From a phage, in NCBI GenBank assembly GCA_024613925.1, contig GCA_024613925.1_4713.1: a stretch of DNA of 64,000 nt. One strand, given 5' to 3'. Both the position numbers and the translations under genes were made by a program. Within the stretch, counting starts at the first letter, position 1, and every line of letters begins with the position of its first letter. A model generated the notes under the pieces. That model was not told the origin of the DNA. It saw only the letters and a program-made list of their open reading frames with translations, and searched no databases. This document shows positions 2,513 to 52,434 of the stretch, in pieces.

Positions 2513-2537
2513 TCACCTAAGTAATATAGCCGTGAAA
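2513..2537 (-). promoter_or_regulatory. conserved promoter-like motif, copy A (minus reading TTTCACGGCTATATTACTTAGGTGA)
   Basis: one of four near-identical 25-nt copies, all in the same orientation and all upstream of minus-strand gene starts. Confidence 0.5.
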
Positions 2538-11254: not shown

Positions 11255-11642
11255 AACGCGTTGCATTCTGGATGATTTCTTTTCCGATCTTAACCAAAGC
11301 GGGTATCTGTACAGCGGTTGCGCCTCGATGACGAAACGCGGTCGTTAACGCAGTATCGATACTCACCGCACGTCCGTGAAGACGATCGAAATAGACTTGA
11401 GTGATTGCAGTAGCGTAATCCTTTCGCTGTTTCTTGGTTTGGCTCAACAGCGCCGCACTATGACTAACGATGAAGTAAGCGATTAAGAAGAACGCCGCTG
11501 AACGCGAACCGGGTAGAAAACCTTGTCGCTTAGGGAGCATCTCACAGTCGCGAACAGAATTATCGTTCGCGAGCTCTTCCATGTCAACGCAGCATAATTT
11601 TGCATAGGTGTGGAGATAGTGGGTAAAAGTTGAATTTAACAT
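11253..11642 (-). CDS. hypothetical protein (small, last gene of early-type cassette)
   Basis: 129-aa ORF with hydrophobic segment AAFFLIAYFIVSHSAALL. Confidence 0.4.
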   Translation of the reverse strand: MLNSTFTHYLHTYAKLCCVDMEELANDNSVRDCEMLPKRQGFLPGSRSAAFFLIAYFIVSHSAALLSQTKKQRKDYATAITQVYFDRLHGRAVSIDTALTTAFRHRGATAVQIPALVKIGKEIIQNATR

Positions 11643-15062: not shown

Positions 15063-15090
15063 CATCACTAAGGTAATATAGTCGTGAAAG
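15063..15090 (-). promoter_or_regulatory. conserved promoter-like motif, copy B (minus reading TTTCACGACTATATTACCTTAGTGATGA)
   Basis: near-identical to copies A, C and D; partially duplicated (catcactagg 10 nt upstream); heads the 8-gene cassette. Confidence 0.55.
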
Positions 15091-43240: not shown

Positions 43241-43266
43241 GTCACCTAGGTAATGTAAGCGTCAAA
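43241..43266 (-). promoter_or_regulatory. conserved promoter-like motif, copy C (minus reading TTTGACGCTTACATTACCTAGGTGAC)
   Basis: near-identical to copies A, B and D; about 150 nt upstream of the start of 41656..43098 and just downstream of the terminator of the major structural gene. Confidence 0.5.
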
Positions 43267-45800: not shown

Positions 45801-46421
45801 TCACAAACGACGCAGGCGATAATGGATGGAACGATTGGTGCAATATGAACGGAACAGCGGCAATTGCGCAACTTCCGCAAGACTCATATTAATTCGCAGG
45901 TGTTCAATAACGGCGCTGTAGTTATCAGCAATACGATCGCTCAATAACTCTTCTGCCAATAAAGGAAGACAATCGACAACAATCGCGATCACATCCTCAT
46001 TAACATAACGCACCCGAACACTCAACGGACGTTTGTCTGGGCTGTAAGTTGGATCCGCCAAACGACGTTCAATATCACGTGGATAGCTCGTCAGTAAATG
46101 GTAATAACCATTGTCATAACGATTGATGTACTCACACAGCACATCAACATTCTTCTCTGGCGGCAAACCTGTTTCGTCATAGTGATACGCAAACATACCA
46201 CCAAGCAGGTTGTTAAGATGAACCGCAGGGTTCGCTTGTTCGTGTTCTTTCGTGATGAAGAAAGGCACGTTCTGGGCTGCGAAATAAAAACCTACATCAT
46301 TGGGCGATAGTATGCCGAAAAGACTTTTAGGGTCTAATAACACCTGTAAGTCATCACGCGCATTTCGAATAATCGCGTGTTCTACCCAATTCGGAACGAC
46401 GAGATATCGGAGTTCCTTCAT
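45801..46421 (-). CDS. hypothetical protein
   Basis: 206-aa ORF immediately upstream (in transcription order) of the major structural gene. Confidence 0.45.
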   Translation of the reverse strand: MKELRYLVVPNWVEHAIIRNARDDLQVLLDPKSLFGILSPNDVGFYFAAQNVPFFITKEHEQANPAVHLNNLLGGMFAYHYDETGLPPEKNVDVLCEYINRYDNGYYHLLTSYPRDIERRLADPTYSPDKRPLSVRVRYVNEDVIAIVVDCLPLLAEELLSDRIADNYSAVIEHLRINMSLAEVAQLPLFRSYCTNRSIHYRLRRL

Positions 46422-48071
46422 TATGATTACCTCTTTGCAAGTATCGAAAGGATTGAGTCGATGGACCCAAAACAGATAGCCATTAAGATTATTACGTTAC
46501 TGTTTCGTAATGCACAATTGAACCATCCCGATCCCAGTACGATCGAACATGTTAAATCCGTCTTAGATAAAGTCGAACCCCCGAAAAACCATCTCGCTAC
46601 GGACGTAGATAGAGAGGTTTTCAACAACCTGATGAATACCATTCATTGGATGTTGGAACAACCATTATCGGAACCTTTCGATAAACAACAGTTGTTACAA
46701 AGGATACGTTTAGATTGCCTTGAACAAAGCAACCTTTACGAGATTCTTGCCGACGGACTGTACGATATCGAAGACGACGCTCATATCAGTAAGGTCTGTT
46801 CACTCTATTACAACGAATTACGTAATCTGGTTACCCGCCGTCGTGTTTTCGAAACCTTTAGAAACACGTACATGGATATCAGTAACGGGCGACTTGGGGA
46901 TAAAGAATTTTTCGATGCGATGGCGAATTTGAAATTATCGCTAGACAGTATCGAAATGGATACCGAAAATCCCGAAGAGATGGCGTGTATGATTGACGGC
47001 TTTATCGCCGACAGCGAAGACGATATCGAGAAAGTTGAACGTATGTTCGTCAAAGCGATGGAACGTAACAGTCCTGAAGGTGGATTTGTAACCGGCTGGC
47101 AAGGCTTTAATAAAATGTTGGGGTCGGTCGGCGTTTTACGTCGCGGTACCTTAGGACTGATTGGTGCAATGCAGCACCGGAACAAGTCAGGTGTGTTGTT
47201 AAAACTGTTCACGCATCTGGCACTGTACAATAAACCCCATTTCTTTTTTCCGGAGCGAGCAAAGAAAGCATTACTGATTCATTTGTCGACAGAAAACGAA
47301 GTGGAAGAAAACACGCTTCAAATATACAAGAACATGCGAGAACAGGAAACAGGCGAATATGTCGATATTCGTAAGATTGACCCTCGCGAGGCATCACGTT
47401 ATGTGTTGAAGGTGTTCAATGATGCGGGTTTCTCTGTTTGTATGCGTCGTGTTGATGGGATGAGTTATAAACAACTCGCTAATCTCATCGACCATTTCGA
47501 ACGCATGGGTTATGAAGTCATGGCATTGTTCATTGACTATCTGAAAATGTTCTCATCGGAAGGGCTGGATAGAAATGGACCGACCGGCGCATGGCTCCAA
47601 GAACTCTTCAACAAAGTACGTAACCTCTGCAGCGTTAAACGTATTTTAGGTATGACCGTACACCAGCTGTCATCCGACGCGAAGATGCGTGCACGTGACG
47701 GTAACGATGAAGAGTTTGTTGACCAAGTCGCAGGTTTAAGTTACTGGGATGGTTGTAAAGGGATTGACCGTGAGATTGACCTTGAAGTGATTGTTGATAT
47801 CGTTAAGGAACCGGGCAAACGTCAAAGCTGGCAAGTCTTTGCATTAGGGAAAGACCGTCAACCGGATAACGGTTCAACGAAACCTGAAGACAAACATTTC
47901 GCGATGCCATTCCAAACCATCGGGATGCTTCCTGATGATTACGGTAAGAAAGCGGTATATTGCCGCAAGGTTGGCGGACAACCTGTCTCCGAGGGAGGTA
48001 AAGGTCCGTGGAACAAGTTCGATGAAAACGCAGCACCGAGTAATGAATTACAATTTGATTTAGAATTTTAA
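46377..48071 (+). CDS. DnaB-family helicase-like protein with a variant P-loop
   Basis: VTGWQGFNKMLGSVG...LGLIGAMQHRNKSGVL aligns to the DnaB H1 region (VTG...LIIVAARPSMGKT) but has N where the glycine before the lysine is expected; VMALFIDYLKMF matches the DnaB Walker B box LIVIDYLQLM; likely true start MDPKQIAIKI (about 46453). Confidence 0.45.
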   Translation: MFYPIRNDEISEFLHYDYLFASIERIESMDPKQIAIKIITLLFRNAQLNHPDPSTIEHVKSVLDKVEPPKNHLATDVDREVFNNLMNTIHWMLEQPLSEPFDKQQLLQRIRLDCLEQSNLYEILADGLYDIEDDAHISKVCSLYYNELRNLVTRRRVFETFRNTYMDISNGRLGDKEFFDAMANLKLSLDSIEMDTENPEEMACMIDGFIADSEDDIEKVERMFVKAMERNSPEGGFVTGWQGFNKMLGSVGVLRRGTLGLIGAMQHRNKSGVLLKLFTHLALYNKPHFFFPERAKKALLIHLSTENEVEENTLQIYKNMREQETGEYVDIRKIDPREASRYVLKVFNDAGFSVCMRRVDGMSYKQLANLIDHFERMGYEVMALFIDYLKMFSSEGLDRNGPTGAWLQELFNKVRNLCSVKRILGMTVHQLSSDAKMRARDGNDEEFVDQVAGLSYWDGCKGIDREIDLEVIVDIVKEPGKRQSWQVFALGKDRQPDNGSTKPEDKHFAMPFQTIGMLPDDYGKKAVYCRKVGGQPVSEGGKGPWNKFDENAAPSNELQFDLEF

Positions 48072-48096
48072 ACGCAAAAAAAAAGATTGTACGGTT

Positions 48097-48128
48097 CCCT
48101 CCTCCAACCCGTAAGGGAAGGAGGAGGG
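48097..48128. terminator. CCTCC/GGAGG-arm hairpin between convergent genes (probably bidirectional terminator)
   Basis: ccctcctcc-aacccgtaagggaa-ggaggaggg with A9 tract upstream. Confidence 0.6.
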
Positions 48129-48949: not shown

Positions 48950-49519
48950 TTAGACGATGAGTGACCAGGTAGTAAGCACCCCGCTCGCGAATTCGAGCTT
49001 AAGACGTTTACCGATAAGTTGTTGCTGGATCATCTTCTCGGTGATACGTCGATCGTGCTGAACCGCTTTATCAAACGCTTCTTTCGCTTCAGCTTGGTAG
49101 AAGTTCGTTTCTTCGTTTTCGTCGATCTCTTCGAGAGCATCGTCGTCGATGTCAGCAAGTTTCACTCGACCGTTTTCATCAGGTTGTTCTGCAGGTTCAT
49201 TGTCATAAGGCGTGTCTTTTGTTGGTGCGACACGATGTTGCAACTCGACCTGCGTTAACATGATCTCCATCTCACCATCGATAGGAATGATTTCATCGAC
49301 GCTGCCGTTTTCGGTCAACTCCCGACTTTCCAGTAATGTCGTCGTAACAGAGAACACCTCTTCAACAGGAACCTCATCATCGTCGATAGTGTTAACCGTA
49401 TTGCTGGTAACTTCAGCAACGACCATCAAATCAAATGCGTGAGGGTCACCTGGCATTTTGATTCCTGGAAGTTTGTTGAGGTACCAAGGATCAAGAATCA
49501 TGATTTCTGGATTAAACAT
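48950..49519 (-). CDS. strongly acidic hypothetical protein
   Basis: 189 aa with a large excess of D/E (for example IDDDEVPVEEVF and ADIDDDALEEIDENEETNFY). Confidence 0.45.
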   Translation of the reverse strand: MFNPEIMILDPWYLNKLPGIKMPGDPHAFDLMVVAEVTSNTVNTIDDDEVPVEEVFSVTTTLLESRELTENGSVDEIIPIDGEMEIMLTQVELQHRVAPTKDTPYDNEPAEQPDENGRVKLADIDDDALEEIDENEETNFYQAEAKEAFDKAVQHDRRITEKMIQQQLIGKRLKLEFASGVLTTWSLIV

Positions 49520-49834
49520 CGTATTTTACCTTTCTATGTTAGGTGGGTTGCGGATAGAAGAATCAATGCATAGATTGATCGTTCTTTGTTAGAAATTATT
49601 GCCGAACCGGTTATGGTTATATGGTTGGTAGTACGCCATAGGCTCCGGTTTAGGGATTTCCATGGTCGGATTTTTGGAATTGATTGCCATCACGTAAATT
49701 GTTACGGGCGATACCGCGTGATTCATTTCGACGGCCACACGGTTGTTTGATCGATTGTTCAACTGGTACTGATTACGATTGGTTGATAACAGTAGAGCTA
49801 CTGCCTAAAACTCTACCGTTGTTTAGATACCGTA

Positions 49835-50695
49835 TTAGGATATACGGTGCATCGTCGGTGCGATTGGTCGTTGACCAAGGTAGAATGTATATCTCGGACG
49901 ATTTTTCGGTGCCTGGTTCGGTTGAGGATTCTTCGAATCGATAGCTAACACGTAGTACTGAAGTGTGGGGTTGAGTGTCGTCAGATAGTTTCTGATGAAC
50001 TCCTCGTTTAAACTTTCAGTCGGGGTTAGTATGTGCCCGTTGATTGTAACGACGGTACCATCGGAACGTATTTCACGAACAATGCACCAAGCCCCCGCAC
50101 CAACATCGGTAGGAATAGTCGTGCTGGGAGTAATGGTTAGATATTTATCGAAGAATTCGCAACAAAGAGGATGCATGTAGACCGTTACGGTATCATCTCC
50201 TGGCGAGGTTCTCTCTTTTGTTACAGGATCCTTCGTCGGTACAAATGTGTTAATTTTGGCTACCTTATCAGCATCTTCGTTCGCTTCGATATAAATCTCT
50301 GCTTTACCATGTACGCTCTGAGCTATACGACGTAACTGTTCGTATGTTTTCGGTGAGGTTAGCTGTACCCGACTGAGCAGCTCATCGTACCAAGCTTCGA
50401 AGGTGCTTGTTGGTATCTTAACGTATGCCTTATTTCCGGTTTCATTTTCATCCCGGAAGATAATCGCAACGGTATCAGGCTCATCAAGAGAATCCAGGTA
50501 AACAATGTGTTCGACCAACGCAGAAAACGTTTTACGTCCGGTTCCTCCATAGTACGGGTTTGCTGAATGAACCAGCCGCCAGTTACATGAAGTTTGGATA
50601 TGATCGAAGGCGTTGATCATGTTTTTACTGTAACGAAAAATTTCAGTAAAATATTCTTTACGTTCTTTACTAAGACGTTTGTATATCTTGGTCAT
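49835..50695 (-). CDS. paralog family B member
   Basis: 286 aa; C-terminal half (YMHPLCCEFFDKYLTI ... GAGAWCIVREIRSDGTVVTINGH ... LNEEFI) matches 50749..51549. Confidence 0.5.
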   Translation of the reverse strand: MTKIYKRLSKERKEYFTEIFRYSKNMINAFDHIQTSCNWRLVHSANPYYGGTGRKTFSALVEHIVYLDSLDEPDTVAIIFRDENETGNKAYVKIPTSTFEAWYDELLSRVQLTSPKTYEQLRRIAQSVHGKAEIYIEANEDADKVAKINTFVPTKDPVTKERTSPGDDTVTVYMHPLCCEFFDKYLTITPSTTIPTDVGAGAWCIVREIRSDGTVVTINGHILTPTESLNEEFIRNYLTTLNPTLQYYVLAIDSKNPQPNQAPKNRPRYTFYLGQRPIAPTMHRIS

Positions 50696-50748
50696 TTTTG
50701 TAGCTCCTTGATTAAAGTAAGGATGGATACGATTATTTATTATCGCTT

Positions 50749-51549
50749 TTAGTTTTTACCATTCCCCCAGCAGGGTTCTTCGTAAAAATGGTGCGGATAG
50801 CGATAATGAGAATTATTGGGTCTTCCTGTCGTTTCTTTCTGTGAGTCGACGACTAACGCGTAAAATAATTGGTGCTTGTCCATCATCGAAAAGTAAGAGG
50901 CAAGCAGTTTTTCGTTTAACGCGTCGCATGGTCGACAGGTACGACCACAAAGCGTTACGATACGGCCGTCAGGATAAACTTCACGGATCGTTCGCCATTC
51001 ACCGATACCAACCGGCGATGGTGCTGATGTGCCGCCCGCTATCGTTAAATATCGGTCGTACGTAGTACGGCATTCGGGATGAACGTAAATTGGCTGGGTA
51101 TTAGTACTGTCGTTTTCGGTTTGATGTTTACTCACGTATACCTCAAGGTAGATCGTTGGTAATCCGATTAGAACGCCGGTATCACGACGTTTTTTGGTAA
51201 TCCGAGGACGGATACTATCGAGCACGCTTTCCAGTTTTTCTGCGACTTCGTCAGCCGGTAATATATACCAGTATTGTGGTTCTGGGTCATCACCATGACT
51301 GAATAAGATACGACAGTCGGTGCTATTATTTTCTTCTACTTCAGGCGGGAAGATGATGGTGTGAACCGTATGACGTTCTGCGATATAAAATCCTTCGGGT
51401 CCCTCAGTTTTGGTAAGTGTAAAGGACCAGGGTGAACAATCTTCAGGTGATAAGCCTGCTAGGAAAAAGTTCGTCCGGATTGGCGCGTCCCATTTCGTGA
51501 TCATGTTAGCGTGACCAATAACACCTAACTTTTGATAAATATCTGTCAT
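50749..51549 (-). CDS. paralog family B member
   Basis: start set at ATG of MTDIYQKLGV (51549) because the track ORF (to 51675) runs through promoter copy D and into the terminator hairpin; YVHPECRTTYDRYLTI ... GIGEWRTIREVYPDGRIVTLCG ... LNEKLL. Confidence 0.5.
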   Translation of the reverse strand: MTDIYQKLGVIGHANMITKWDAPIRTNFFLAGLSPEDCSPWSFTLTKTEGPEGFYIAERHTVHTIIFPPEVEENNSTDCRILFSHGDDPEPQYWYILPADEVAEKLESVLDSIRPRITKKRRDTGVLIGLPTIYLEVYVSKHQTENDSTNTQPIYVHPECRTTYDRYLTIAGGTSAPSPVGIGEWRTIREVYPDGRIVTLCGRTCRPCDALNEKLLASYFSMMDKHQLFYALVVDSQKETTGRPNNSHYRYPHHFYEEPCWGNGKN

Positions 51550-51604: not shown

Positions 51605-51629
51605 TCACCTAGGTAATGTAGTCGTGAAA
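51605..51629 (-). promoter_or_regulatory. conserved promoter-like motif, copy D (minus reading TTTCACGACTACATTACCTAGGTGA)
   Basis: near-identical to copies A, B and C; about 64 nt upstream of the ATG at 51549. Confidence 0.5.
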
Positions 51630-51664: not shown

Positions 51665-51696
51665 CCCTCTCCCAACCCGTAAGGGAAGGGAGAGGG
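51665..51696 (-). terminator. intrinsic terminator, CCTCC/GGAGG-arm hairpin family
   Basis: ccctctccc-aacccgtaagggaa-gggagaggg; 6 nt after the stop of 51703..52434; minus strand continues TTCTATGCTGTCTTATTTCG. Confidence 0.65.
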
Positions 51697-51702
51697 AATA
51701 TA

Positions 51703-52434
51703 TCACCAATGATCGAAGGAACCAGGAGTGTTACGAACGATCTCAACTTGGAAGGTTATTGGTACTGATGGCAATGAAACATATTCGCGTTGCGATAGCG
51801 GGACGTTGTCTTCTCGCTCATCGATGCGAGCAGAACCTGTCAGAAATTGGAACATAGCGACTTGAAGCTCATCGGTGAAACGGAGGTACTCACCGATGTG
51901 TGGTGTTGCATCATATCGAATAAGTACGTTGCCAAACCGTCGTGCGATATTTGGAGTATCTGTGAACGAAACAGGGAAATCCAAAGTCATTCCCATCGTT
52001 TCACCTGGCTTCATTTTCCGAATCGACGCAATTGGCACGTCGAAGATATTCCATTCTTCTTTCATCGTGTCTGGAAACACACCGCGATACAAGATGGTCT
52101 TTTGATGACGATGAACGGGTTGTAAACGGTCAACCAATATTTTCAAAGGTTTAAGTTCTTCAGCCAATTCATAATCTGCTTGGATGTTCCACTTTGCCGC
52201 AAGTTCCATTAGGTTGGGATACGCGCTATATTTATTGACGATAGCCCAGTTAACATTACGCAAATCAATAGGAAGGAATTTGATAATTTCCTTGTTGAAT
52301 ATCCATTGGTTTAATTTCTTAATCTCCGAAAGCATGATGTACTCACTACAGCTAAACGGTTGGACGAACGGTGTTGTCTTTTTCTGGTGCAAGCCATAAC
52401 GTGACCGTACCATGGCATGTCCACTGTGGTTCAC
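51703..52434 (-). CDS. hypothetical protein
   Basis: 243-aa ORF; true start probably internal (MLSEIKKLNQ, about 52335), which removes the overlap with the upstream gene. Confidence 0.45.
   Translation of the reverse strand: MNHSGHAMVRSRYGLHQKKTTPFVQPFSCSEYIMLSEIKKLNQWIFNKEIIKFLPIDLRNVNWAIVNKYSAYPNLMELAAKWNIQADYELAEELKPLKILVDRLQPVHRHQKTILYRGVFPDTMKEEWNIFDVPIASIRKMKPGETMGMTLDFPVSFTDTPNIARRFGNVLIRYDATPHIGEYLRFTDELQVAMFQFLTGSARIDEREDNVPLSQREYVSLPSVPITFQVEIVRNTPGSFDHW

Follow-up and report, generated by a model that had tools for sequence, protein, structure and literature searches.

T7 Ocr (gp0.3) and ArdA are small early non-structural proteins with a pI near 4 and a net charge of roughly -25 to -30, and show their carboxylates on a rigid DNA-shaped dimer. 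T7 Gp2, T4 Arn and SPO1 Gp46 are small acidic early inhibitors of the DNA-binding surfaces of host RNA polymerase, H-NS and HU, and illustrate the range of possible decoy targets. The early chimallivirus protein Dip (gp37) of phiKZ is an inhibitor of the RNA degradosome, its acidic patches occupying the RNA-binding sites of RNase E. The acidic protein described here, the ortholog of gp046 of Escherichia phage vB_EcoM_Goslar, is encoded by a Goslar-like phage of the Chimalliviridae (nucleus-forming jumbo phages; Goslar belongs to the genus Goslarvirus). Like Ocr and ArdA it is small, early, non-structural and very acidic, but it shows no sequence or fold similarity to either of them, and its main acidic block is a predicted disordered hypervariable loop. 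The setting differs as well, as the DNA of the phage is, going by published work on chimalliviruses, already hidden from restriction enzymes. To Gp2, Arn and Gp46 the protein is unrelated in sequence and fold. By analogy, Dip may be the closest functional precedent in the phage family for a nucleic-acid mimic, and it is the most relevant one because the cytoplasm gives access to phage mRNA but not to phage DNA; no homology to Dip was seen in PDB profile and fold searches, however, and size and predicted architecture of gp046 are different.

Over 3 kb around 48950-49519, the window (the whole stretch of 64,000 nucleotides that was analysed) is 96% identical to Goslar, whose coordinates run about 10 nt ahead of those of the window. 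The 189-aa ORF named in the initial annotation was confirmed on the minus strand, and both peptides quoted there were found in its translation. The encoded protein has 97.9% amino acid identity to Goslar gp046 (YP_009820731), found at the same position and already carried in the Goslar annotation as 'hypothetical protein'; a literature search for Goslar gp46/gp046 found no paper discussing it. Some gene callers choose a start at Met22 (168 aa) for this gene. The upstream ATG is favoured over M22 because the N-terminus aligns with the distant clade from residue 1. The low dN/dS of 0.03-0.06 among the Goslar-clade copies, the transcription of the Goslar ortholog and a syntenic homolog with ~28% identity in a second clade indicate a real gene. 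All features of the locus are listed in Table 1.

Table 1. Features at and around the gp046 locus (window positions, or residues of the gp046 ortholog where so marked).
Feature	Position	Strand	Remarks
Acidic protein CDS	48950..49519	-	ATG-to-stop ORF, 189 aa; ortholog of Goslar gp046 (YP_009820731)
N-terminal region	residues 1-96		inter-clade identity 26%; net charge -16 to -17 in both clades
Loop	residues 97-134		inter-clade identity 15%; net charge -11 (window clade), -19 to -22 (other clade)
C-terminal helix and hairpin	residues 135-189		inter-clade identity 34%; net charge 0 (window clade), -5 to -6 (other clade)
Predicted disordered polyacidic loop, residues 97-134	49118..49231	-	D/E 37% here, 44-49% in other clade
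Ribosome-binding site GAAAGG	49529..49534	-	9 nt upstream of ATG, read from sequence
Imperfect 12-bp inverted repeat, ATGCAT centre	49556..49585	.	in 69-nt gp046 leader; present in Goslar, absent from distant clade
57-aa ORF	49589..49762	-	5'-truncated remnant of third paralog of upstream gene family
286-aa early-operon cargo gene	49835..50695	-	paralog of 266-aa gene; absent from Goslar
266-aa early-operon cargo gene	50749..51549	-	ATG 51549 with GAGGA ribosome-binding site; absent from Goslar
Early-promoter motif ACGACTACATTACCTAGGTGA (virion RNA polymerase type)	51605..51625	-	operon head, ~2.1 kb upstream of gp046
GC-rich hairpin closing preceding late tail operon	51665..51696	-	~40 nt before early promoter; arrangement shared by L002
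gp045 ortholog, 133 aa	48478..48879	-	co-transcribed downstream partner, kept with gp046 in both clades
gp044 ortholog, 108 aa	48145..48471	-	last early-operon gene
Intrinsic terminator, 14-bp-arm GC hairpin and T9	48076..48128	-	ends early operon after gp044, faces convergent helicase gene
Early-promoter motif, Goslar gp001-004 cluster	2513-2533	-	
Early-promoter motif, Goslar gp014-021 cluster	15065-15085	-	
Early-promoter motif, Goslar gp037-040 cluster	near 43257	-	hairpin-then-promoter likewise at 43.3 kb

With 42 Asp and Glu residues (22%) against 15 Lys and Arg, the gp046 ortholog has a net charge of -27 and a pI of 4.15, and thus shows the acidity of Ocr/ArdA-type mimics (small, pI below 5, strongly negative). 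It ranks first in acidity among the 57 proteins of the window, with a net charge per residue of -0.143 compared to a mean of -0.016 (s.d. 0.036), and only two of the 57 have a pI below 4.5; as the top outlier of this set, its acidity goes beyond chance. The earlier description as Asp/Glu-rich with few basic residues was borne out by these values as well as by conservation in the clade with ~28% identity. When a 16-sequence alignment was divided into three parts (residues 1-96, 97-134 and 135-189), the loop turned out to be the fastest-evolving part, hypervariable in sequence and length but with its charge kept (37-49% Asp/Glu). Within clade B, loop identity falls as low as 27%, with indels, and the flanks stay at 80% or more. 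As the loop diverges yet remains 37-49% Asp/Glu, the selected trait appears to be the charge plus the folded core.

No family match was obtained for gp046 in Pfam (including Ocr, ArdA and other anti-restriction families) or NCBIfam at E<=0.1, nor in PHROGs at E<=0.01, and a PDB profile search gave nothing below E=0.1. A fold search with the model revealed no similar solved or viral structure, solved DNA mimics included. AlphaFold2 was run twice, with 3 sequences (mean pLDDT 63) and with 16 sequences (59.5), and both runs agreed in topology; the model is of moderate confidence only and the alignment spans just two clades. Predicted were N-terminal strands, a long strand pair to residue 95, an acidic disordered loop (97-141), a long helix (135-168) and a C-terminal beta-hairpin (172-188), with pLDDT below 50 in both runs at residues 97-141, the main acidic block, and 57-77. 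From this model, gp046 is predicted to form a small alpha+beta core, in which strands and the C-terminal hairpin are packed on helix 135-168, with a loop of about 40 residues, and its fold is predicted to be novel. As regards the DNA-like surface charge that the initial annotation proposed to check by structure prediction, the stretch richest in acidic residues is predicted as disordered and not as a rigid DNA-shaped surface. PDB sequence searches with gp044, gp045 and an inserted 210-aa gene of the window (see below) found nothing.

The expression class of gp046 could be taken from Goslar RNA-seq data comparing a control with knockdown of the nuclear shell protein ChmA (bioRxiv 10.1101/2023.09.20.558163, Sup. 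Table 2). The log2 ratio of knockdown to control was +0.7 to +1.3 for gp044-gp047 (+1.06 to +1.19 for gp046 itself, measured in Goslar and not in this exact phage), -3.9 to -5.5 for gp041-043 and -2.5 to -3.8 for gp048-050; the drop for gp048-050 and the capsid gene was 8- to 40-fold. Hence, gp044-gp047 form an early, ChmA-independent class, unlike the late genes on both flanks. Read density of gp046 at 30 min was about that of the major capsid gene, and its transcripts were abundant with or without a nucleus. Nucleus-independent expression is regarded by the authors as the early programme run from the early-infection vesicle, and transcription of gp044-gp047 without the phage nucleus thus points to the injected virion RNA polymerase acting from this vesicle. 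As 'early' is broad in Goslar, with 175 of the 249 genes detected at 5 min (bioRxiv 10.1101/2023.09.20.558163), the timing rules out little except a purely late role. Copy numbers in the LC-MS/MS table of Goslar virions are ~6 for gp045, ~2.6 for gp049 and ~1.5 for the helicase, and non-structural enzymes are found at the same background level of 1-6 copies (bioRxiv 10.64898/2026.04.21.720040, Table S4). For gp046 this table of purified virions has no entry, though its neighbours gp045, gp049 and gp043 are listed (1.5-6 copies).

The early operon is arranged in the order hairpin, early promoter, variable cargo genes, gp046, gp045, gp044 and terminator, and the succession of hairpin and promoter explains the split between early and late operon in the RNA-seq data. 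At 51605-51625 the promoter motif has the consensus ACGnCTAyATTACyTAGGTGA, with a longer form TTTCAsGnyTAyATTACCTAGGTGA across sites, and the same motif stands at the head of each of the three other early clusters in the window, all on the minus strand and frequently in the same arrangement with a hairpin; as a rule it is preceded by a GC hairpin and 'TCTATGCCGT'. Distant phage L002 keeps the motif at the syntenic position, as does Goslar with a single base change, and a further copy is located 65-88 nt before the start codon of Goslar chmA (L014 12964-12988). The chmA transcription start site was mapped in published work, where the displayed sequence begins 91 nt upstream of the start codon. 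An early-promoter function is in line with a published rule for RNA-polymerase-encoding jumbo phages, by which early operons are marked by AT-rich motifs near -10 (review PMC7598289), and the motif probably serves Goslar-like phages as the early promoter of the virion RNA polymerase. The motif and the operon map together allow a simple sorting of the genes of the genus into early and late units. A scan for sigma-70 and terminator consensus sequences near gp046 gave fewer matches than in shuffles, 'CTATGCAT', present in the gp046 leader, is about as frequent as expected by chance, and a literature search for the motif string 'TATATTAC' retrieved no relevant paper. One match to ATATATTAC at 51258-51266 (-) lies inside the 266-aa cargo gene without the flanking TTTCACG and CCTAGGTGA; it probably arose by chance, since the counts of the 8-mer TATATTAC (3 matches, 1.8 expected) and of the 9-mer CTATATTAC with up to one mismatch (9 matches, 11.6 expected) are near expectation. 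A hairpin equivalent to the operon-ending terminator follows the gp044 homolog in L002. The hairpins at 48097-48128 and 51665-51696 are near-identical (CCCTCyTCC-TTCCCTTACGGGTT-GGAGrAGGG), and the L002 hairpin (about 11385-11420) has almost the same sequence, loop included; a reused terminator module is suggested by this likeness.

A tblastn search of 50,697 phage genomes with gp046 (E<=10) returned Goslar only, and exhaustive phmmer analysis of 1.84 billion representatives gave two clusters only. The Goslar cluster comprises 292 members, many of them derived from isolate assemblies of Salmonella, E. coli and Shigella; the other, P0002 (196 aa, 30% identity to the gp046 ortholog), derives from a second, uncultivated Goslar-like clade of 255-259 kb phages. 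Beyond these clusters, a profile search added close relatives of P0002 only, and IMG/VR contributed three Goslar-clade loci. By the tblastn, phmmer and profile searches, gp046 is restricted to one phage genus. Phages of the P0002 clade show the order spike-cap gene, variable genes, homologs of gp046, gp045 and gp044, helicase region and major capsid gene, the helicase region being accompanied by additional genes and encoded on the other strand. Identities between the window and L002 are 41% for gp045, 40% for gp044 and ~28% for gp046. No relationship of gp046 was found by hhalign either to gp045 or to the acidic protein at a comparable position in phage RAY. Near-identical gp046 copies (P0001 cluster) are located on contigs of ~237-247 kb in assemblies labelled Salmonella enterica, Shigella flexneri and E. 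coli, and such copies in isolate assemblies indicate that Goslar-like lytic phages are common passengers in enterobacterial genome assemblies.

The region upstream of gp046, initially annotated as about 315 bp of non-coding sequence, is not a plain spacer: positions 49520-49834 hold a 57-aa ORF that is the remnant of a truncated paralog. No early-promoter motif was found in this interval, and gp046 is without one of its own. The C-terminus of the 57-aa ORF resembles those of the upstream 286-aa and 266-aa genes, which are mutual paralogs, and in L011 the third paralog is intact at the same position with 148 aa, showing that the window has lost 287 nt of it. For the 266-aa gene, the true start is ATG 51549; a longer TTG-started ORF would cross the promoter. 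Three paralog copies are found in L011, two and the truncated remnant in the window, and none in Goslar and L010, from which all three have been lost; L002 has three different genes at the cargo position. In Goslar both cargo paralogs and most of the remnant are deleted, and the extreme 3' end of the remnant survives within the annotated 'gp047'. This annotation begins upstream of the promoter motif and merges sequence of the promoter region with the final codons of the remnant; it resembles the scar of a deletion and is probably not a gene. Thus, gp046 closely follows a cargo hot spot that forms the head of the early operon and differs in gene content between all relatives examined. The paralog family itself is specific to the Goslar clade (window 49589-51549; L011 3653-5930; L001 7575-7763) and shares a C-terminal domain of ~110 aa with the pattern Y-x-H-P...D-x-Y-L-x-I...G-x-W...R-E...D-G. 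The inverted repeat in the gp046 leader could be an RNA hairpin or an operator.

The gp046 protein is early, has abundant transcripts, is missing from the virion table, is confined to a single genus and is under strong selection with its charge conserved. These facts fit a host-interaction protein made early in the cytoplasm, and the restriction to one genus together with the site just downstream of a cargo hot spot is typical of host-interaction genes. As the best-supported mechanism, we tentatively infer that gp046 may serve early in infection as a polyanionic decoy in the cytoplasm, directed at a host protein that binds nucleic acids. Translated in the host cytoplasm early in infection, it would act as an electrostatic decoy, a nucleic-acid-like polyanion, that disables a host protein by covering the surface with which this protein binds DNA or RNA; the target might be RNA polymerase, a nucleoid-associated protein, an RNase or a defence sensor. 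The folded core would then provide specificity and the acidic loop the charge. Against such a decoy speak the missing sequence or fold likeness to any known mimic (Pfam, PHROGs, NCBIfam, PDB and fold searches), the moderate structure model (mean pLDDT 60-63, two-clade alignment), and the occurrence of acidic disordered regions in chaperones and assembly factors too. In addition, the usual selective reason for a DNA mimic is gone when, as published for chimalliviruses, the phage DNA is already sequestered.

A reasonable, though unlikely, rival is an acidic chaperone that escorts basic phage proteins. It would shield nucleic-acid-binding or injected proteins while they are in the cytoplasm, for instance ahead of nuclear import, much as histone chaperones do, and gp045 and gp044 could take part. 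An acidic disordered loop on a folded core, as predicted for gp046, would suit this function, as would the invariable linkage to gp045 and gp044 in both clades, the abundance of Goslar transcripts at 30 min irrespective of the nucleus, and the strong purifying selection, which a housekeeping phage function would lead one to expect. However, all chimalliviruses face the same import and assembly problems and gp046 is absent outside the Goslar-like phages, and the hhalign comparisons revealed no relationship to gp045 or to the acidic protein of phage RAY.

Much less probable is a classical anti-restriction DNA mimic, that is, a rigid DNA-shaped acidic surface blocking type I restriction-modification enzymes in the manner of Ocr and ArdA. 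In its favour, gp046 is small, very acidic, expressed early and not detected in virions, and missing homology is indecisive here because known mimics have unrelated folds. On the other hand, gp046 matched neither the Ocr/ArdA Pfam models nor any sequence or fold in the PDB, and its most densely acidic segment, disordered by prediction, is hypervariable in both sequence and length. Chimallivirus DNA is described in published work as shielded from restriction enzymes and Cas nucleases, first by a vesicle and then by the protein nucleus. On this account, anti-restriction is the least needed kind of mimic, and only weak selection would be expected for such a factor, yet purifying selection on gp046 is strong. 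Of the initial proposal, a candidate DNA mimic or anti-restriction factor, the refuting condition set there was decided in favour of the proposal by the rejection of a structural role, and the strong conserved charge and the restriction to one genus fit a host-interaction protein. Positive support was found neither for DNA mimicry nor for anti-restriction, and the latter is unlikely.

An acidic structural, scaffolding or tail-assembly protein of the adjacent late tail/baseplate operon, which the initial annotation had named as the finding that would speak against a mimic, is suggested by the position just downstream of the spike-cap, adaptor and tail terminator genes (gp048, baseplate spike cap; gp050, tail adaptor; gp051, tail terminator in Goslar) and 3.3 kb from the major capsid gene and by the frequent acidity of scaffolds and tail chaperones, but is highly improbable, since hairpin terminator and early promoter divide gp046 from the late operon, its expression is nucleus-independent whereas gp048-050 and the capsid gene fall, and absence from the virion table together with early expression leads to rejection of a structural, scaffold or tail-chaperone role. 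A late tail-assembly chaperone or scaffold as read from gene order was discarded by the same three observations of RNA-seq class, terminator-plus-promoter boundary and virion proteomics.

Nucleus-forming phages dodge DNA-targeting immunity by compartmentalisation, and the remaining conflict is expected at cytoplasmic early proteins, which are mostly uncharacterised. A further step, possible but doubtful, would be to see in gp046 the first member of a new nucleic-acid mimic family of nucleus-forming phages, in which a disordered polyacidic loop, conserved in charge and free in sequence, is mounted on a novel alpha+beta core and neutralises a cytoplasmic host factor. This factor (an RNase, RNA polymerase, a nucleoid protein or a defence sensor, but not a restriction enzyme) would be one that endangers the exported mRNA or the early takeover steps, which the phage has no means of hiding. 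With its abundant transcripts, strong selection and conserved negative charge, the protein lends itself to study as a candidate effector of host takeover or anti-defence in jumbo phages of E. coli and Salmonella; at present it is one more acidic ORFan.

Two further observations concern other genes of the window. Between the spike-cap gene and the hairpin terminating the late operon, a 210-aa gene (51703-52335, minus strand) is present that is absent from Goslar but found in L010 and L011. By eye, its product shows an R...S-x-T...Q-x-E pattern (LYRGV, VSFTDT, SQREYV) reminiscent of ADP-ribosyltransferases, a likeness that no Pfam, NCBIfam or PDB match backs; its homologs are only hypothetical proteins in other jumbo phages (Erwinia pEa_SNUABM_54, Shewanella SXP01). 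In the start region of the helicase (window 46377-46470), the longest ORF, from GTG 46377, overlaps the gp042 ortholog by 45 nt, and the true start is probably ~84 nt further in (window about 46461), as in the Goslar annotation.
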